DNA of 63,485 bases, filler included, from Collodictyon triciliatum (GCA_043381765.1; 5 parts of 5 records of this genome joined end to end with filler, not necessarily neighbours in it); one strand, 5' to 3'. Positions 1-45,949 are shown, counted from the first letter of the whole stretch. Notes: generated by a model from the letters alone, not told the origin. A program made the numbers and translations.

Positions 1-229
1 TTTTTTATGTTTTTTTATGTTTTTTATGTTTTTTTATGTTTTTTTATGTTTTTTTATGTTTTTTTATGTTTTTTATGGTTCTATGGTTCTATGGTTCTAT
101 TCTTATTTAGTAAGCTAAGACTGTCTGTGTGTTTAATAAGGCATGACCGAGTATCGCAATTAGTAATTTTTGTTGCATATTTTTTTAAATATTCAAGAAT
201 TTTTATATTTTTCAATTGTAAAATTAAAG

Positions 230-3200
230 TATATCTGAGCCATACCCAAAGTGAGAGACTGGCCAATACGAGAATACATGTGATTCCTGTGAGGACGAAG
301 TAAATTAGATTTGTAGCGACGCCCCCAATCGGCAAAAGGCCTGGAACGGCGGATAAACCTGGTTGTGTAATAAAAAAAAATATACGTTTCATTTCCTTGA
401 ATATATAATGGATATATCAATGATAGGAAAGCTTCCATAAATTTTGTACAGTTATATAAACTGTGAGTACAGATGTGAGAGAAACTTACACACGGATGTA
501 ATTAAAAAAGTCAAAAGTTCCCACGGGAAAGCATCATATTGTTCGTATAGAAAATATGAGTCTGCTACTGGGAAGATGTCTCCAGTGATTTCAAATTTAT
601 CCTGGATACTCGAAATGGATTTCCTGATTTTGTTCTATTTTAGACAATCAACTACCATGCAAATATATGTTGAATATTCCAAAACCGTCCATGACATGAT
701 TTTGTGGAGTTTTGATCTAAGATAAAATTGAGAAGGAAGGTAAAAAAAAATTCGAACCTAAGATTATTGATATATGACGAAGCTGCACTGTTCTGCCTGA
801 TATTCGCGAATCTAGCTCTTATTCTAGAACCTGAATCGAGTATGTAAATAACTCAGTATTTCATTTTAAGCTACATTAAATTTGTAATTCGCATTGCACA
901 GAACTGATTATCACTTTTCTTTTTTGTTAGAAGCAAACTTCATGACCAATTAAATTCAGTATATCTGCGGAAATTACCAAGAATGTATGATTTGTCTGCA
1001 TTGAATTGAACATCGCCACGAAATCCTATGCTTGATGTGTTCCCCATAAAGTAACCGAGCCAAACGTAGAAATTTGCGTTCAAAGATGCCTCGTCGCTAG
1101 TTTTACATTTTTTCTTTAACTCATGTCATAGAAAATTATTATAACACAACTACTAATATATAAATCGTTTTATTATTTCCGCGCATACCATGGAGAAGGA
1201 CAAATATGCGAAGAGCTCAGCCAGCTAAGATAGCTGGAATACCACGATGTATATGAGGAGGCGTGAATGTATTCATCAGACTGTATTTTTTCCTCGAATT
1301 CCTGTTGGAAAATGAATTATCAAAATTACGCGATGGTGTATGAACAACGCGTTTCGAATAATTGTTTCTGGGCATCAGTGGTTAACAATTAAAAGAAAAC
1401 CTTCATAAACAGCCGAGACTTGGGCTGTTTGAAATCAACACCTTTGAGATAAAAATGAGCTTCATAACCGCGAGAAGGAAAGAACTCGTCTTCTATATGT
1501 AAGAATTTTCTATACCCCGAGTTTCCATTCACTAACCTAGTGACAAAATTTATGTGAGCTCACAACATGGTAATGTAATAATGCAGGAATAAAGTCATAC
1601 TCTAATGGCTCAATTCCAGACTCTAGGTCTATGATTGTGTATATGGAGAAGCCAAGGTAGCCAAGCATGATGGAGACCTGTATTCAATCAATGTATTTTG
1701 TAATTATAAGGTTAAGAAAGAGAATTATAAAGAATAAATTTAAAGTATGGACATAAATACACAGGCTAATACACCGCACGAGGGTATGTGGTACAATTGA
1801 TAGATATTTGGAATATTCAACTCACCATTCCAATTCTAAATGCCATTAAGCTAATAATATTCCCATAAAGAACTCCAAAGAAATAAGACTCTTTGCTTTG
1901 CTGATTGGATGTCGTGTGATTGCTTTTTCTAAAAAACGGAATGCAGTCGAATCGAGCACCCTATGACATGTTGATGCGTATAAATACGAATATCTGTCCA
2001 TTAGGAGGAATGCAAGTGTCATAGAAAGAAGAAATACGTTCACTCGATCTATCTCGAATGACAGAAGGACTGGAAAAGTTAGTATTTGATAAACGAAAAG
2101 AACGGCAGTTCCCACGGCATTCTCGGCACAAAAATCCTATAAGTCCCAGAACAAACAAACAAACAAACAAACAAACAAACAAACAAAAAAAAAAGGAAAT
2201 AGAGAAAAAATGAAAATGAAAATGAGGAGGAAGAGGAAAAGTATTTAGTACGTAATAGATATTTGTACATTTCAATAAGAAATTTATAATGAAAATATTT
2301 CCAATGACGATTCAATGATATATCTAACCCGAATAAATGGAAAGCGACTCATTAGTCCGGACAAATAAATCAACAGAACAGAAATGTAAGCCATGATGAT
2401 ATAAACACCAGCATCTAGAAGATATAAAAATTCAGGGGAAATATGATGATATAATTCAGTCTGATAAGTATATAATTTAACTTTTTTTTTATTAGAGTGG
2501 AAATTTCTCACGAGAAAATACAATCCCAACTAGGTGAGGTGTGTCATCAGTGTGTTGAACCCTAGGCGAGAATACCGAAGCAAAGATTATGTATTGGGAA
2601 ATTGTGCATAATTTTGTTACTTTCAAAATCTACTTTGGTTAGACAAGTAAATCGATGATGGTATGGTTTTTTTCGAAGAGTTTGTGCGTTAGAGTAATTT
2701 AGACATACATTAAACTAATTCGTTTCAGAGTTCTCAAAACTAGAATCCCCGAACCCAGTCCGATGAAGATGTGGCTAAAAGCAGTCGAATAGCTGAAGCT
2801 GACGAATGGTTGCCGTCCATAGGCTGAATTCAATTTCGAGTGAAAGGGATGCAATCGATGAATGATGTGCCGAGTGATTATGTGCTGTTCTACATGTACA
2901 ATTCACTAACACTGCATCAGACTGTATGTGCTGAGTATGGATATCCCGATGATGAGGACAACTAAGAAGAAGAAAAGCATGCGAGACTGGACGAAGTCTG
3001 ATCTTATGAACGCGACAATCACAAAGAACTAGTATAATGTAGATTTAATCTGAGGTATAAAAGTTGATTAAATGTGCAACTGTAAAAAAAAAATACCGCA
3101 AATACTGCCAACGTGTTTGTAAATATCATATAATTATCCCTTGGGATGCCCATATACTCGTAATTCAATGTATCCTGGTGTTTAAAAAAAATGCTTGAGT

Positions 3201-4190
3201 AAGTGAGGCATCAATAAATTTTGAATCCTCCTTTTTTTTATTACTACTTTGAGTGATCAGGATTATGTATTCAACTACTTATACTCAAACAACCTTATTC
3301 ATATGTACAACTATGATGCCTAAATCTCCAGCCTCACGGGTTACATTGGACGTTATGTAGTCTGATACTTGCTCTTCCCATTGACGAACACCTTCGGATC
3401 GATCCTCCCTCATGTAGTAACTCCAGTAAAATCCCTTGGCTGAAGATATTACTCTAATAGGGTCAAATTTCAGAATTCATTTGATTTTAACTGAACTCGT
3501 CATTCAATATGTGAGATATGTTGTTTCATAGATGCTGATATTTAAAAAAAAACGTTTCTTGGTTCTAAAAATAATGCTGTAACAGAGGAAAATGGTGCTT
3601 CCAACTCATATTACCCTAGATTCTTGATATTTGCAGGTGAAACAAGAAGATAAGGAGAGTTGAGGAATCCATCAGGGTCTTCGAAATATGAGTTGAGAGT
3701 GAGATATTTGTTTTCATCTTCAATATATTTTGTGCCATTATAATCCCATCTTTGTAGGACATTTTCCACACGACACGAACCATCCTGATAAGTTGAGCAT
3801 AGGCTTTCAAAGTTTTGATTAGAGTTTGACCTAAATGACCTGAAGGCTTTATCCCACCGGCTGATTGCACTCATTATATCGTTTGACAATATATCTAGGT
3901 TTCTCTTTGTAAATATGATGATTTCAGTTTTTCTCGAAGATATGGGATTTTTAGGAAAAGAGTAGCCATAGGTTTTCAGATTCTCCAAGGTAGGGCTCCC
4001 ATCTGGAGTCTGGTTCATGTCGACAAGTAAAGGAAAGCTGTGTGACCATATGATTCCAATAGTAAAGGCTGCTACAAGGAGGACATATGCAAAAAGCATC
4101 AACAGTCGGTACTTGGATGTATAGTAAGCGTAAGATTCCAGAAGTATACTGATTTTGCTATATACAGACGTTGCCAGTCGAACCCATCCG
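230..4190 (-). CDS. Patched/NPC1-family (RND, sterol-sensing domain) membrane protein, multi-exon; C-terminus probably truncated at the scaffold edge; left coordinate approximate
   Basis: Spliced exons give TM1, a luminal CRVENVLQRWDY segment and VRQWEEQV. SSD-like helices follow: VQSRMLFFFLVVLIIGISILSTYSL, SHIFIGLGSG, DFCAENAVGTAVLFVYQILTFPVLLSFEIDR. The NPC1/Patched-like SYFLYEQY motif is at about 530-560. Confidence 0.8.
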
Positions 4191-4444
4191 CTAAACGAAG
4201 AAAAATATACATGAGCCAATTGCGAATATAGCGCAAGCAATTATGGTACATTAATAAAAAGAAATTCACTAAATCAGCATTAAAAATGCAAGCAGAAGGG
4301 ACTCAAAGTAATATTCATTCGATGATGGTAATGATATTATTCAAGATATTAGCCAGATTATTGTGATATCAGGCGATATGAAAAGGCTATGTTAATCCAA
4401 CATGTACACAATTTTTGGTGTGGTTTAATCCTGTGTGTAGTAAC

Positions 4445-5340
4445 CTTCGAGGGTCTGGTGCAGTAAAGTATGCATTTGGAAGGATTCCGCTGAGAGACAT
4501 AGGCTGAGACTTTGGTTGTTCAGGCGCCCATGCTACATTGGCATTCATCGCCTGTATTTCCCGGCACCATATTTTATCATGAGATACAATACTTTATAAT
4601 CAGATAACACAAATATCTAAATATCCAAAACAAAAAAAGGCATGTTTACCGGATTCTCGTATTGCATTAATAAGATTTCTCGGTGGTCCTGACAGATCAT
4701 GCACGAATGGCAACACACACTGGTTACACAATCGCCTATGTCATCATCAGGAAGGCCCTACAGTTTAGTAAAGCACATAAAGGTCAGCGCTTCTGGTGTT
4801 GGTTTGTGAGGATAGCTACTCTAAGAAGGAAATAAACATTAAATTGATGATTATAATCATGTAGAATGGCAAATTTTGGATACAAACTCTCTGCTTTCGT
4901 AATGAGCGACGGGTGAAGAACTCTACTGGACAGAACAGGGCATCGAGCAGACTGTATGGCCTCTCGTCAACATACGCAGCATTTTGTGCACTTAGAACAC
5001 ATGGACATAAGAGCCCCGTGACACCTGTGGGAGAAAAGAATCTATGATTAAATGACTGGGACAGATAGCTACCAGAAGGAAGTAAGAGAATAAATGAAAG
5101 TAAATTGATTTACTTTCAACCCGCTATTGGGGACATTAACGAAGGCTGAAAGTATCATAATCGCGAGAGGCAAAAATAAAACAAAAAATGTATTATTCGG
5201 AAAATCATACAGGAATAGTCGGACATGCAGTCAAATAGGGATGTGCTCCAAGTCTTTTGTGCACTTGCTTGGGGCTGGTACATAGGCGTCCTTTGGCTGT
5301 GTGGTGGCCGCGGGCCGCGCGGGACTGAAGAAGGATACAT
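4445..5340 (-). CDS. PLAC8 (Cys-rich, DUF614) domain exons plus linker, apparently the 5' part of the Patched/NPC1-like gene
   Basis: Exons 5340-5211, 5024-4888, 4757-4650 and 4551-4445 join in frame through GT-AG introns. They encode WSTSLFDCMSDYSCVTGLLCPC...TRRSLRKQRGL...DCVTSVCCHSCMICQDHRE, the PLAC8 signature. Confidence 0.85.
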
Positions 5341-5867
5341 TCTGGCACTGAGGCAATCAAAGCCAATCTGAGCAAAGTTGTGAATGATAAAAAAAAAAAG
5401 CCATTTTTTTGGAATTGAGCGGCCTCCAGAGCCGGCAACCTCTTGGCTACGCAGAATAAGAGCTGGTGCTTTGCGATCCGACGCATTCTGAAAGGCAGGT
5501 TGGTGTTTCCGCTCTCGAAAGTGATTCTCTTTGGTGGTTGATCGGATCCAAAAACTGGCAGAGTTCGAGACAACGGTCATAAACGGATTTGATCCAATGT
5601 GGATATTAAATTTATTTATATTTTCTTATAGATATGCACCTCAAGTATTTCATATATATGTAAAAAATATTATAAATTTAACTAAATTTCATTATGGTAA
5701 AAGATATAAGTGGTGTTACTCTCATGATGCGATACATCATTACCCATCACGCCTTTTCGTCACCGCGCGTGTGCTCTTAGTCACGTGCCCTTTTTGATCT
5801 GTTTGTTTTCAAGGCTCGTGCAGGAAAGGAATGACTATAAGAGGCTGTGTTTTGCATCTTGGTATCA

Positions 5868-6288
5868 ATGGCTTTATCTACAAGCGCTCATGTGCTTGAG
5901 TCGCTCATGCACAAACAGGAGGCCGAAGCCAAAAGGCGCGTGAGCGAGGAAATACAAACCTAACTCGCAAACCTTGGGTTGACCTGTATATCAGAAACCA
6001 GGCAACTATTACTACGAGCGCGGCATGAGAAACCTTCTGATCGGTCTTCTTGAATGGCGCCTCCGTGTACGTCCACACCTGAAGGACAAGTTTGCCAAGC
6101 TTGCGCAAGGACAGCATCCTAATGGTGACTTTAAACTTCTTATCAGCCCCCACTAATAGTCCACCCATGAATCCTTACAACTCTGCACAATCTCTTTGCC
6201 CTAGAGAAAAAAAAAAAAAAGACTGTCATTCTTTAATCGACACAGGAATTGCTGCAGCAATAACACTTTGTTATCTTGTGCACATTTA

Positions 6289-6334
<46 letters not shown>

Positions 6335-7450
6335 CTTACACAACATCACTACCTAAAGAAACTCTGGAGAGAAAGAAGAAAACACAAACACACTTTTCAC
6401 ACTTTGGCATTGTTCCATAGTGCTGTTCATCGGGTGCAGCGACTCTCGTGTTGCCGTCAATGTCTTTGCATCCACCCGCCCTGGAGAAACCTTTGTGATC
6501 CGCAACGTCGGGAATCTCGTCCCGCCAAGCCTCGGCTCCGAGTCACACCAGGACGTGGAGAAAGGGCCGGTCGGCTCTGCCCTCGAATTTGGTATCAACT
6601 CGCTGAGCGTCAAGCACGTCATTGTGTGCGGCCACTCCAGCTGCGGTGCTGTCAACGCCCTCACCAAACTCAACGATGTCAAACCGCATCATCACTATCA
6701 CCACACCCACGGAGAGAACCAACTGGCATCTAGTGATGCAACAAAGACAATTGGTTCGTCTAACATCACCCATTGTAGCGACCTCTCCTCCCCGCTGATT
6801 GATGCTACATCTGTCTATTTAGCCATGCACTCTTTTACGTGTATGCGCGGTTGATAACATGAAATGCATCGCATGCCCTCTTCTACTTCTCTGCGGCACT
6901 TATTCTGTTTGCCACACGCAGGCAGCATCCAACACACATGCACAGACCCGACACACAACCATGGCGCACATCCCGCCCCAGTCATACCCGGCATGCCTGC
7001 AATGACCTCCTGGCTCAAATGGGGCCACCCGACAGCACACGCTTGGAAGGCGGGCGACCGCGTGGACGGGAACAACCGTATGTCTCAGATATGAAGTCGG
7101 CTGGTCGGTTGATTTGCGCTAATTGCAGGAGTACATCATCGATAGACTTGCCTTTGGTGGATCAACTGTCCCAGCTCAATGTGAAGCAGCAGCTGCGGCA
7201 TCTGCAGTCGTACGAGATTGTGAAGCAGAAGGTGGCCAGCAAAGAGCTCAATGTGCATGGCTGGTGGTTTGACATCGGGGCTGCCGCGGTCTACTCGTAC
7301 AACGAGCAGTCGAATCGCTTCCGCTTGATTGACCTCAATGAGGCAAATCGCATCATGGAGAGTGTGGGCGAACCCCCAATCAACCAGGATTTGATGGAGG
7401 CCATGCGCGGCGACGTCCATGACTACGAAACCCTCATCGCAAATGCCTAG
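5868..7450 (+). CDS. Beta-class carbonic anhydrase, about 5 exons
   Basis: Motifs LAQGQHPN|VLFIGCSDSRV, RNVGNLVPP, ALEFGINSL, VIVCGHSSCGAV (Zn ligands C, H, C), NVKQQLRHL and VHGWWFDI are all present. Confidence 0.93.
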
Positions 7451-12621: not shown

Positions 12622-12721
12622 NNNNNNNNNNNNNNNNNNNNNNNNNNNNNNNNNNNNNNNNNNNNTTAATTAATTAANNNNNNNNNNNNNNNNNNNNNNN
12701 NNNNNNNNNNNNNNNNNNNNN
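12622..12721. other. Artificial scaffold spacer N44-TTAATTAATTAA-N44
   Basis: Palindromic 12-mer with stops in all six frames; identical 100-nt unit occurs four times. Confidence 0.97.
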
Positions 12722-35700: not shown

Positions 35701-38060
35701 TAAACTTTCTTCTATGATGCGATTTACTACACTAAAAGGCTCTTCCTACGAAAATAGTGATATTCCCTTTTAATGTATCACGGGATATATTATGACTTTT
35801 CATAATCTTTAGTAATGATATCATTCAATCATGTATCCACCCCAGGAGGGTGGAGAGGATGGAATTAGGGTTAGGGTTAGGGTTGGGTATGGTGTTTTTT
35901 TCATTACAAAATACATGTATCATATATCAAACCAAGGAAATTACATATTCGTCGAAGGGGTCACGCCTTGATAAAAGCTCCCAAACGACGATACCTAAAC
36001 TGTACATGTCCGAGTTCTGACTGAAGTTGTTTTCTTTTAAAACCTTGAAGCCCAGAAGAAAATTATTGTTGATTAGGGTTAATTGATCAAAAGAAAAAGA
36101 AAAACTCGTACATGCATTACCTCTGGAGCAGACCATAAAATGCTGTGATAAAACTCGTTTTTTCGAGTACAGGAGTCTCTAGTTCTCTGGAGACCAAAAT
36201 CGCTGAAAAAATGATTTAATAATAAATAAATATCCATAGTCTAATAATTTTTGTCCATAACTGAATGGCACGCTCTAGAAAAAGCCAGATTTACCTGAGC
36301 TTTACAGACCACCTTTCGTCCACCTAGTTGGAAAATTTGCATTTGAGTAAAGTTAGTTAATCAGATTTATATTTGCGAAAGAAATTCGATTCACCAGTAT
36401 ATTTCTGCTTGTAAGACTTCCATGAATAATTGGAGGCTTAGATAAATGGAGATACTGAAGTCCTGATAAAAAATAAGTAAGCATAAAAATAATACTTTGA
36501 TATGATTCTTTATGCACGATAATGCTACCTTTTACAACTCCAAGGAGGATTGAGCTCACACGATTCCAGGGCAATAATATATCATGATTGAATTTGATCG
36601 AATGCAAGTCTCCTTTCTCCATGAACTCGAATATAAATGCGATATTTGGTTGTTCCAGACACGCACCCATGTATAGAACCAGATTTGGATGGCGGATTTC
36701 GCTTTAATTAATATTTTAAAAATTTTTTAGAAAAGGCAGAGAAAATATGAAAAGTATGCAGTTCACTTAAAAAAAAAACACGAATACGTGAGCGCAGCCA
36801 TGTCTTCAAACACGGTGTTCTGGACATCTTTGATGTTCTGGTTTGATAGCCTTTTGACAGCAACCTTTCCACCTCGCAGAATTCCTTCGTACACCTGCCC
36901 AAAGAAATAGATGAGTTTCTGACAAAAGATAAAACAAAAGCAGTACTGCAACAGATTACCTCAAAGACTGACCCTTTTCCAATCAATTTTCCAGCTTCAA
37001 GGGCCTCCCAAGGATATGACGCAAGAATTTTCCTCTTTTCGAAAATTCACATTTCAAAGTAATTTATTCATATATAATAAAATAATTTCAAAATAAATTG
37101 TATTTAACGCAAACATACCATGTGGGACTCGTTTATATTGTGAACTTGTCTTTTTACTCGGCGTAAATAGATGAAGGCAGACGAAATAAAAACAGCAGAT
37201 ATAGACAAAGCAATCAAGACAATTGCAAAGATAGGCATAGAATCTAAGAAAAAAAGTAAAAAAAATTAGGGAATGAAGGAATTCGTTTGCTTACAAATCT
37301 GCTGTTGAAATGAAACTTACCTTCCTTATTTTCATCTGGGCAGAGGGGCTAATAATAAGAGTATTGTTAAATGTATAATTATAATGCACACAAAAAGATG
37401 AAATTCAGAGTTACATTTTTATCAGACACGAAGCATTTTGAGCAATCATTCGTTTTTGAGCGATAATATCCGACATTACAGGTACATTCTCGACTGTTTG
37501 AGAGGTGGCTGTTTGGAGGACAATCTATTATATTTCATTTTTAAAAAAATCAATTAATTACGAAAAAATAAAATAAAAGGTGATGTTACACGAGAAGGAA
37601 AAGGTATATCTCACCATGGTAAGACAAAGAGAATCCCTTTCCTCCTCCATTTTTGTTCGAAACAAAGTGGATGTAAAATTGTCTTGTGGTAGAATGAAGC
37701 ACTCTAGATTTCTCTGACTTCTTTGTCTTTGAAAGGATTTGTCTTACAATTTATGGAATAATAACAAAAATTCATGGACACTTCTGCCTATTTTAAGTCG
37801 ATACATACAAGCGAGTCGCTATATTGGCCAATAAGTGACATGGTTTCCCTCTCTGGTGAATCGTAGATGGACAAATAGTCTCCACTTCCGATATTCTCGT
37901 TGCTGACAAATAGGTAGTTTGCCTGTAATATTGTTTAGTAAATTTGAGCTGCGTGGCGCAAACGCGATGGTAAAAGTGTCTATTAATATAAAATATACAT
38001 TATTGACTATCCATGAGCAATTTGTATTCGGTTGGTACTCGGCACTAAAACTTCCATCAG
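32765..38060 (-). CDS. Single-pass receptor: Cys-rich ectodomain, TM, pseudokinase, class III cyclase-like domain, TKL-type protein kinase; 5' truncated
   Basis: Ectodomain CPPNS...CTCNVGYY...[29 protein letters not shown]. Kinase 1: [29 protein letters not shown]. Cyclase: [33 protein letters not shown]. Kinase 2: [26 protein letters not shown]. Confidence 0.92.
35865..35887 (+). repeat. Interstitial telomere-like repeat (TTAGGG)3 TTGGG in an intron
   Basis: Directly visible. Confidence 0.7.
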
Positions 38061-38160
38061 NNNNNNNNNNNNNNNNNNNNNNNNNNNNNNNNNNNNNNNN
38101 NNNNTTAATTAATTAANNNNNNNNNNNNNNNNNNNNNNNNNNNNNNNNNNNNNNNNNNNN
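38061..38160. other. Artificial scaffold spacer
   Basis: N44-TTAATTAATTAA-N44. Confidence 0.97.
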
Positions 38161-40712: not shown

Positions 40713-40984
40713 AGCTGTGCATTTCTTCTCGGAAAAATAAAAGCATAAAAAAAGCATAAAAAAAGCATAAAAAAGCATAAAAAANNNNNNNNNNNNNNNN
40801 NNNNNNNNNNNNNNNNNNNNNNNNNNNNNNNNNNNNNNNNNNNNNNNNNNNNNNNNNNAAGCATAAAAAAAGCATAAAAAAGCATAAAAAGGCTTACAGA
40901 AAACAAAAACAAAAATAAAAAGAGGAGAGAACTTTGTCAAAAATATGTGTGTATGATATTTTAAATTGAAATTGATAGTGTCGA

Positions 40985-43900: not shown

Positions 43901-45949
43901 CAGATCCAGCGGAATTTTTTTCATATCCTCTCTAAAATCAACAAATAAATCGCAACAAATCCAAAATTCAAAGGATAGAATTTAGATCATGACATACACA
44001 TAACAACAAGTTGGGGATTTTTTTCTTTTTTAAGGAAAGATATTACTTATCAACTTTGAAGCTTGGCTTGTAATATGCGATATCCCGGGGGAGAATAATC
44101 ATATGCTTGGCCTTCCAACCTTTCTTATTCGTACTCTTGCGAACCATAAATACTAAATTCGACCTTGATTCCTCTAGTTTCAAGTCTGATTGTGGTTCCT
44201 AAATTGATATAAATATCGTTGTATTTTGTTTTTCAAAATTTAACAAATTGTGATACTGATTTTGCTTATCAAGTCAACAAGAAAACACTAATAGTGAAAC
44301 GATTACAACAGCAGTCTGACCTTTTTCGGTGGATCATTCTCAATCACGATAGAGTCTTTTGGTTTCGAAATAGATGCCATCAGCTTACTTACTGATTCAT
44401 GTGATAAGTCCAAAGCCAAGGAATACCTGCTTTTTAGCGATTTAATGTGATCTGGAGCCTTTTGAGGCTGGTTGCTCAGGGTGATTGATGTATTGATGGT
44501 TGAAGCATCTTTGCTAATGCTATGGAAATCGGAGGCGGAGCTTTCATACGACAACTTGAGATTTTGGAGTGTCACAGCTATCTTTTGCACCCACTCTTTC
44601 TTTTTCGCTGCAGTTTCAGCCATAAAACATGTGTCTTTGGCACCACACTTTAACGCAAAACATCTTTCAAGTTCATCTCTTGATATTCCTGGAAAGCTCT
44701 GTGGATTGTCTCGAAGTTTTGCTGTTTCATCAAAAACGATGGTACCAACTATCTCGGACTTTGAGGAATCTTTGAAATAGCTGAGTGTGAATCCGTCAAG
44801 CATAAAGTATCGCAAGCGCCACCTCCAGCTGGTAAATGTTCGCTTTTGTAGATTTCCTTCGATCTGGGTGAACTGTTTCAAGCTTGTTCAGAAAGGTGTC
44901 GAGGCATTAAGACAAAGAGAACAATTAAAAAAGAAAAAGGAAAAAAGAAAGAAAAAGAAAGAAAAAGAAAGAAAAAGAAAGAAAAGGAAGAAAAGGGAGA
45001 AGAAAAGGAAGAAGAAAAGGAAGATTGGGTAAAAGAACTATATTTCAGGGTATTGTAAAATGTGAATGCCTGCCTTGTATCCTTCTTTTTGGACCAACTG
45101 AGCGACCTCCATCTTGACCGGCTTCAAATCACGAATATTTCTCTCCCAAGTTGTTCTTATCAGTTCCTTCCAATGATTTGCTCCGTCTTGTGTTTCCCAA
45201 AGCAGCACTATGGCGGGTGCCCCGAGTCCGATGACTACAGCCCGTGTAACTTGCTCTGGTCTAGAAAGAATTCCGAAATAATGAATAATCAACAATAAAT
45301 TATACATTCCAATTAATAGAGATAAAATATATTGATGAATAATAGAGAAAAGGTAGCAAACGGATGTAAATGGAATATTTAAGCCCAAATTCATTGAATA
45401 AACAGAAGAAAAGAGAGGCCGCTATTTGGAGCTTCAATTGAAAGTTCTTACGCAACTCCGTGCTCTGCGGTGGCCTCTACATGCTGAACCCCGGTTATAT
45501 TAGTCAACGTAATCGTGTTGATTGGATCCGGGTCATATCTCCTCTTGTAAAATAAGAGTTGTGTTGGGTAAAGGCAACACCACCTCTCTGGGGTGAAAAA
45601 AAAAGTATTAACTCCAAAAAAAAATCCATAAAATTGCGTACCTGAATTTGTGGTTAAGAAAAAGAAAAGGAAAAAGAAAAAAAGAAAGAATGAATGAGTG
45701 AAGACACGTAACATAATAGATATATAAAAGAGTTTAACCTTTCCAGCTCCAGCTATTCATTTTCTTCTTCTTGAGAAACCCTTGGATGATAGGTCCATGA
45801 TCCTGCCACGACAAGGAACCGCAAAATCAGACCACCCGTGAATATATCGCAAACAAGCTCCCAAGCGGATCAAAAAGAGATAATCATTCATAACGTGCAC
45901 AGTGTATATATGTTACGGGCATGGAGCTTCTCACCTTCGGCTCATCCAT
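40985..45949 (-). CDS. Multi-PH-domain protein (about five PH or PH-like domains, Ser-rich linkers)
   Basis: QGFLKKK..SWKERWCCL..LLFYK...ANHWKELI; EGNLQKR..WRLRYFML..LSYFKD...KKEWVQKI; KGWKAKHMII..IAYYK; FEAQSSDDRSAWIRAF; FHSDNESIVQTWLESL. Confidence 0.75.

Follow-up and report, generated by a model that had tools for sequence, protein, structure and literature searches.

The window analysed here is the whole stretch of 63,485 nucleotides (nt), filler included, from Collodictyon triciliatum (GCA_043381765.1), and it consists of five parts of five records of this genome that were joined end to end with filler and are not necessarily neighbours in it. On its minus strand, from 5340 down to the first bases of the window, exons that would encode a PLAC8 domain are followed in the same direction by a linker exon and by the exons of a membrane protein of the Patched/NPC1 type. 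The main finding is that these two parts may well belong to a single gene: with a probability of roughly 0.55, a fusion transcript exists in which the last PLAC8 exon (E3) is spliced to the linker exon (E4), and E4 to the first Patched-like exon (E5), in at least part of the mRNA. The intron between E4 and E5 (intron 4) is removed in RNA, and E4 is thereby in the same mRNA as E5, the exon that carries the first transmembrane segment (TM1). For the preceding intron 3, we infer its removal, and hence the fusion itself. Such a fusion had been proposed in a sequence-only reading of the window, several claims of which are taken up below.

The exons are numbered E1 to E19 in the direction of the transcript, and residue numbers are those of the spliced model. 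The features of the region are as follows.

E1, 5340-5211, minus strand: ATG at 5340; Pro/Gln/Ser-rich leader and start of the PLAC8 part, with the first Cys at residues 38 and 44; ends in phase 1.
E2, 5024-4888, minus strand: PLAC8 core with CPC at residue 50; partial PF04749 match.
E3, 4757-4650, minus strand: C-terminal part of PLAC8 with Q..RE at residue 112; ends CCG|GTAAAC in phase 0, without a stop.
Putative intron 3, 4649-4552, minus strand: 98 nt, GT..AG, GC content 0.29.
E4, 4551-4445, minus strand: linker exon of 107 nt (35 codons plus 2 nt), Ala/Pro/Ser-rich; 4445-4495 covered by RNA.
Intron 4, 4444-4191, minus strand: 254 nt, GT..AG; removal seen in RNA.
E5, 4190-3615, minus strand: predicted pre-TM1 helix, TM1 (residues 190-208) and the first ~145 residues of luminal loop 1.
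E6-E11, 3453-3294, 3174-3097, 3028-2911, 2823-2716, 2414-2329 and 2136-2038, minus strand: by exon model and hydropathy, the remainder of loop 1, then five hydrophobic segments (TM2-TM6) at the position of the sterol-sensing domain.
E12-E19, 1960-1826, 1677-1601, 1536-1401, 1301-1189, 1096-978, 830-758, 623-490 and 358-246, minus strand: predicted TM7, loop 2 (~187 residues), TM8 and TM9; a donor GT follows at 245-244.
Start of intron 19, 245-1, minus strand: tandem repeats; the exons still missing, for the expected TM10-12, are beyond the window.

The PLAC8 part and the Patched-like body

The region has a eukaryotic character, with a GC content of ~0.35, short exons and GT-AG introns. The spliced model comprises 19 exons, 2607 nt and 869 codons with no stop; its exons were chosen by eye to stay open and checked by script. 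All 18 introns of this model are GT..AG, and their lengths range from 64 to 301 nt. Exons have a GC content of 0.39-0.55 (0.55, 0.50, 0.46, 0.50, 0.39 and 0.42 from E1 to E6), and introns one of 0.29-0.34. When E1 to E5 are joined by script, 352 codons are free of stops. An earlier model contained a long exon at 2136-1849 that needed a frameshift and gave six transmembrane segments; it was replaced by a model with a 77-nt intron (2037-1961), which yields one open frame and five segments.

PLAC8 proteins carry an N-terminal Cys cluster with CPC and a C-terminal Cys cluster with Q..RE. Both elements of this signature are present in the spliced PLAC8 part, at residues 50 and 112, respectively, together with 10 Cys in 125 residues (38, 44, 50, 52, 75, 99, 104, 105, 108 and 111). 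When the exons were queried one at a time, E2 matched profile positions 17-45 of PF04749 (E=0.03, 15.7 bits) and E3 positions 76-101 of 101 (E=1.9e-5, 26 bits), whereas E1 alone had no match in Pfam at E<=1. The two matches are colinear, and their rough sum of 41.7 bits compares with a gathering cutoff of 34.4 bits that neither reaches alone. We therefore accept E1-E3 as encoding a predicted PLAC8 domain, as had been read from the sequence at the outset; the further claim that no stop directly follows Q..RE also holds, since none is found inside E3. The module has no hydrophobic peak of 1.4 or more. Upstream, the frame of E1 is open to 5625, with a further in-frame ATG near 5579. This stretch (5341-5625, minus strand) is far richer in GC than the introns, gave no match in Pfam and is probably 5' untranslated region (UTR).

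Downstream, hydropathy peaks fall at residues 190-208; at 422-440, 449-467, 483-504, 511-529 and 543-561; at 597-630; and at 818-842 and 849-867, with loops of 213 residues after TM1 and 187 residues after TM7. In an exon model picked by eye, this layout follows the RND topology (1+5 / 1+5 transmembrane segments, with big extracytosolic loops after TM1 and TM7) as far as TM9. Among 1.84 billion representative proteins, E5 had one match: P0001, a protein of 195 residues (E=1.6e-6) that aligns to query residues 21-168 with 27% identity. It belongs to a cluster of two members, one of which is named "Niemann-Pick C1 protein" by JGI/IMG. In Pfam, P0001 itself matched HPIH (E=0.0072) and, with 21.7 bits against a cutoff of 27 that it does not reach, NPC1_MLD. 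Against PDB sequences it gave 25 rows, of which 19 were NPC1L1 (best E=0.0055), PTCH1 (0.08-0.13) and NCR1 (0.14), all at the homologous segment that comprises the transmembrane helix and the start of the loop; the other six were coronavirus spike fragments. A two-sequence profile of E5 and P0001 reached NPC1L1 at E=0.35 only, and E5 alone found two unrelated PDB matches only (E 1.7 and 2). No PDB sequence was matched by the open reading frame (ORF) at 1849-2136, by E9 or by E18.

The language-model neighbours of E5 in the ESM Atlas point the same way as P0001. They include "Patched domain-containing protein 3", with a score of 0.97 and 209 of 256 features, and one cluster each of a PTCH1 isoform and of NPC1_MLD (both 0.95), followed by SCAP_N (0.88), a cluster of HMG-CoA reductase HPIH (0.87) and MMPL (0.80); all neighbours listed are N-termini of sterol-sensing-domain or RND proteins. 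An AlphaFold2 prediction of E5 from the two-sequence alignment had a mean predicted local distance difference test (pLDDT) score of 42 and was confident only in the transmembrane helix. With the relative P0001 and the NPC1-named member of its cluster, the PDB rows, the Atlas neighbours and the layout of transmembrane segments, the Patched/NPC1 identity first proposed for this part is supported, and we are fairly confident in reading the body as a very divergent Patched/PTCHD/NPC1-type protein, left unassigned to a subfamily. The "lipid-sensing" role first given to the body is an inference, and no single exon matched a sterol-sensing or Patched family in Pfam.

In Patched and NPC1, an acidic GxxxD/E motif in TM4 and TM10 serves cation coupling. 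The segment that corresponds by eye to TM4 lies in E9 (residues 472-507) and contains no Asp or Glu. For this reason, the body may be a sensor or scaffold, or coupling may proceed via other residues.

The gene had been thought to end near position 230. This proved incorrect: the last exon in view stops at 246 and is followed by a GT donor, and the gene thus runs off the window before TM10-12. Two tandem repeats, (TTTTTTATGT) x7.5 at 1-74 and (TATGGTTC) x3.4 at 74-100, occupy the start of the window. They lie within the expected intron 19, so that the gene is cut by the end of the window or of its contig. Two other repeats are found within introns of the model: an (AACA) x10.5 microsatellite at 2150-2191 in intron 10, and a 20-nt unit in 1.9 copies at 4569-4606 in putative intron 3, which includes a TATAAA-like string.

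The joins between E3, E4 and E5

E4 ends ...GAC CCT CGA AG|GT, and its join to E5 reads DPRSGWVRLATS from model residue 158, in frame. The coordinates and sequence first given for this linker exon were reproduced by script, and the 254-nt GT-AG intron said to connect it in frame to the TM1 exon is supported both by the sequence and by RNA. One public run, a lake-water metatranscriptome, contained part of the segment 3600-5600 (0.09 of the sampled words) and was aligned on 1-6600, where depth was above zero in only 3 of 30 bins. The single RNA contig, 244 nt long with one mismatch and a depth of 3.4, matches 3998-4190 and 4445-4495 and lacks precisely the 254 nt in between (4191-4444), so that the RNA spanning the 4445/4190 junction that the sequence-only reading had named as a check was found. 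The skipped segment ends in CT..AC on the plus strand, that is GT..AG on the minus strand, and the shorter side of the junction measures 51 nt. Because RNA ties E4 to E5, the Patched-like reading frame starts at or upstream of E4.

Retention of intron 4 would, by arithmetic on the sequence, add 19 codons and then a stop at 4389-4387. This agrees with the approximately 20 codons claimed earlier; the stand-alone PLAC8 isoform that was deduced from them would be a hypothetical product. A second claim also stood in part, namely that no ATG of the Patched part precedes TM1. It is true of E5, where the first Met (residue 192) is within TM1 and none precedes it, but it overlooked an in-frame ATG at 4548-4546 in E4, the exon that RNA links to E5. 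E4 contains a second in-frame ATG at 4500-4498.

The join of E3 to E4 is compatible with splicing: E3 is in phase 0 at its GT, E4 follows an AG, and the two are in frame. The GC content of intron 3 (0.29) resembles that of the other introns. If intron 3 were not removed, translation past E3 would meet a TAG at 4619-4617, 10 codons into the intron, and yield a protein of ~135 residues. Only 68 nt separate this stop from the ATG at 4548, whereas the sole other spacer that can be measured, between the PLAC8 start codon (5340) and the point at which a beta-carbonic anhydrase gene first has coding sequence supported by Pfam (6357), is ~1 kb. Three ATGs out of frame with E4 (4643, 4580 and 4570) precede the ATG at 4548 within intron 3, and a separate Patched-like transcript would thus need a private start within ~20 nt of ATG 4548, or else its upstream ORFs would have to be tolerated.

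Several observations weigh against a fusion, or against the Patched-type identity of its second half. The RNA contig ends at 4495, inside E4 and 56 nt short of the acceptor, leaving the E3/E4 junction (4650/4551) uncovered; it therefore says nothing on what precedes E4. The ATG at 4548-4546 is codon 2 of E4 and stands 3 nt after the acceptor, as expected of a first coding exon or of a trans-splice acceptor, and a TATAAA is present at 4598-4593 inside putative intron 3. Scored with weight matrices built from the gene's own other introns, the donor (3.1) and acceptor (0.9) of intron 3 are not separated from decoys, since 29% of 255 decoy GT and 39% of 238 decoy AG reach these values. The frame compatibility of E3 and E4 would arise by chance in ~1 of 3 cases. 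The Met with which P0001 begins aligns with residue 9 of E5 and stands ~18 residues ahead of TM1, which indicates that the usual N-terminus of the family is short and without PLAC8. As for the body, PF02460 and PF12349 were matched by none of 14 single exon or ORF pieces at E<=1, a weak negative for pieces of 35-191 residues. The internal two-fold repeat of RND proteins found no support in a test with an incomplete C half, where a negative is usual for divergent members (local alignment score of 38 against a shuffle mean of 38.6, reached in 152 of 300 shuffles).

Finally, no full-length relative was found by word-index protein searches (0 of the 625 candidates scored for E5, of the 4575 for the E5 plus P0001 alignment and of the 427 for P0001), so that the architecture could not be checked in a second species. 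A scan of metagenome contigs with E5 gave 133 pattern matches, none of them confirmed; with the E5 plus P0001 alignment it gave 222, of which 10 passed tblastn. Two of these 10 were inspected: L006 (9947-10822) and L009 (990-1853) are uninterrupted ORFs of ~290 residues on dense, prokaryote-like contigs and have one 11-residue word, PDGSPTLENLK, in common with E5. L001 to L008 show the same match range and identity, and all 10 were taken as chance.

The first alternative is that the locus holds two adjacent genes and makes two proteins, with PLAC8 ending at TAG 4619-4617 and the Patched-like gene starting inside "intron 3" with ATG 4548-4546. The start codon at E4 codon 2 has a G at -3, and the TATAAA precedes by ~30 nt the point at which a clean start site would be needed, although such a string is expected by chance at 29% GC. 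The read-through tail would be short, with its stop 10 codons into the intron, and both products would conform to their families: P0001 shows that members of the Patched-like family normally begin just ahead of TM1, and stand-alone PLAC8 proteins are the norm, a passage of one account describing "PCR... single domain proteins" (PMC8049495). Under this arrangement, the 3' UTR and poly(A) site of one gene and the promoter and 5' UTR of the next would all have to fit into 68 nt, in an intron-rich gene whose other spacer is ~1 kb. No AATAAA was seen by eye between 4616 and 4552, and the three out-of-frame ATGs would lie just upstream of the start codon. We regard two separate genes as unlikely, albeit worth serious consideration.

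The second alternative is an operon-like pair transcribed as one precursor, in which the AG at 4552 would be a spliced-leader trans-splice acceptor and the mature message would carry the leader and 3 nt before ATG 4548. Trans-splicing occurs in several freshwater groups, such as rotifers, copepods, Hydra and euglenids. The position of the acceptor 3 nt ahead of the ATG and the very short gap to the upstream stop fit this mode of expression, and the PLAC8 ATG at 5340 likewise has an AG 1 nt upstream. Conversely, no spliced-leader RNA was found (Rfam gave 0 matches over the whole 63-kb window), the RNA contig has no loose end, though it stops 56 nt short of the acceptor, and 65 nt leave very little room for a 3' UTR and an intercistronic region together. 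We consider such a pair improbable. Two separate proteins, by whichever of these routes, are somewhat less likely than a fusion. It is very improbable that the joined contig represents DNA of an intron-less allele or retrocopy in the RNA library and that the locus is untranscribed or decaying, for although RNA libraries can hold DNA and the contig is single and of depth 3.4, the missing piece is exactly a GT..AG unit with the frame kept, and the 869-codon model has neither stop nor frameshift. The remaining probability includes mixtures, for instance alternative splicing that yields both products.

The proposed fused protein and its relation to known systems

If PLAC8 and the Patched-like body are indeed fused, the locus would be one minus-strand transcription unit that starts upstream of ATG 5340 and in which at least part of the mRNA has E3, E4 and E5 spliced together. 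The resulting protein would consist of an N-terminal cytosolic PLAC8 domain (~125 residues, 10 Cys), a disordered Ala/Pro/Ser linker of ~60 residues, a pre-TM1 helix and an RND body of the Patched/PTCHD/NPC1 type, visible as far as TM9. The PLAC8 module might then form a membrane-associated, Cys-rich cap at the cytosolic face beside TM1, and could govern the localisation, the oligomerisation or a metal- or redox-dependent gating of the transporter. On the most economical reading, the tethered cap would serve regulation or targeting and would not provide a second pore or transport pathway.

Eukaryotic RND proteins with Patched domains (PTCHD/Ptr, PTCH1, NPC1/NPC1L1/NCR1 and Dispatched) share with the predicted body its order of TM1, a loop of ~210 residues, five transmembrane segments, TM7, a loop of ~190 residues and TM8-9. 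Further likenesses are the relation of the TM1 exon to P0001, whose cluster has an NPC1-named member, and its language-model neighbours among the N-termini of PTCHD3, PTCH1 and NPC1. The body differs from these proteins in being very divergent, without a PF02460 or PF12349 match on single exons, and in the absence of an acidic residue from the segment matched by eye to the TM4 position. Its N-terminal extension also sets it apart from P0001, with at least 43 residues here, or 168 if fused, vs. ~18 in P0001.

The N-terminal domain of NPC1 lies in the lumen, is preceded by a signal peptide and requires an additional transmembrane segment. Compared by placement alone, the Cys-rich sterol-binding cap that forms the N-terminal domain of NPC1 and NPC1L1 is similar to the present arrangement in that a Cys-rich module stands N-terminal to a Patched-type core. 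The PLAC8 module, by contrast, has no hydrophobic peak that reaches 1.4 and would be cytosolic.

Members of the PLAC8 family (plant PCR/FWL/CNR, animal PLAC8/cornifelin) resemble the upstream part in its 10 Cys per 125 residues, CPC, C-terminal Q..RE and a PF04749 match that extends to the last position. According to one account, known members are mostly small, single-domain proteins (PMC8049495), whereas here the frame can continue into a transporter. The same account presents plant PLAC8 proteins as possibly membrane-embedded and metal-handling (PMC8049495). It also provides a precedent for PLAC8 in a multidomain membrane protein, the plant MCA channels, which consist of MCAfunc and PLAC8; there PLAC8 stands at the C-terminus, with a partner of neither the RND nor the sterol-sensing-domain kind, whereas here PLAC8 would be N-terminal (PMC8049495). 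As judged by titles and the openings of abstracts, none of the papers found in the full-text library searched describes a fusion of PLAC8 with Patched, with NPC1 or with any protein that has a sterol-sensing domain. A fusion, if true, would thus be an unreported N-terminal module for the Patched family and a new arrangement of two known families.

PLAC8 proteins are widespread but have no settled mechanism; in plants they are involved in metal tolerance and organ size, in animals in autophagy and lysosomes. Proteins of the Patched/NPC1 type transport sterols and lipids. If nature had joined the two covalently, this would suggest, in a way open to testing, that they cooperate at a single membrane. 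A more far-reaching proposal, which we put forward tentatively and think rather doubtful, is that the fused PLAC8-PTCHD protein is the main product and represents a Rosetta-stone fusion, in which case PLAC8 proteins would act from the cytosol as partners of lipid transporters of the Patched/NPC1 type or would regulate them. If so, the partnership may also hold where PLAC8 and Patched/NPC1 are encoded by separate genes. NPC1 is a lysosomal protein. For human PLAC8, one paper indicates a protein of the plasma and lysosomal membranes (PMC9627672), and the two would thus be an example of such a possible partnership. Should the two parts instead be separate genes with 68 nt between them, the locus would be ordinary and mainly a caution that adjacent genes on the same strand can be read as a fusion.

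Other features of the window

Divergent from the PLAC8 gene, the beta-carbonic anhydrase gene lies at 6357-7447 on the plus strand in two ORF pieces, which match Pro_CA at profile positions 1-85 (E=2.6e-28) and 111-154 (E=2.4e-8). A candidate first exon chosen by eye (5983-6156) has no match in Pfam. A 43-base A/T homopolymer is located at 6290-6332, between the PLAC8 and carbonic anhydrase genes.

Pfam searches with 153 further ORFs of the window returned generic eukaryotic domains only. Other exon-sized matches lie at 15640-16549, 29954-30688, 31504-32326, 32768-36703, 44306-45756, 48716-49120 and 51946-52242; the families represented at these sites are RabGAP-TBC, an ArsA/GET3-type ATPase, gamma-glutamyltranspeptidase, at least two protein-kinase genes, a PH domain, an ion-transport protein and an AAA ATPase. 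Pairs of 44-N blocks that are 12 bases apart recur every ~12,720 bases (12622-12721, 25341-25440, 38061-38160 and 50780-50879), and this regular spacing looks like masking and not like assembly gaps. Additional runs of N are found at 40785-40858 and 57968-58256.

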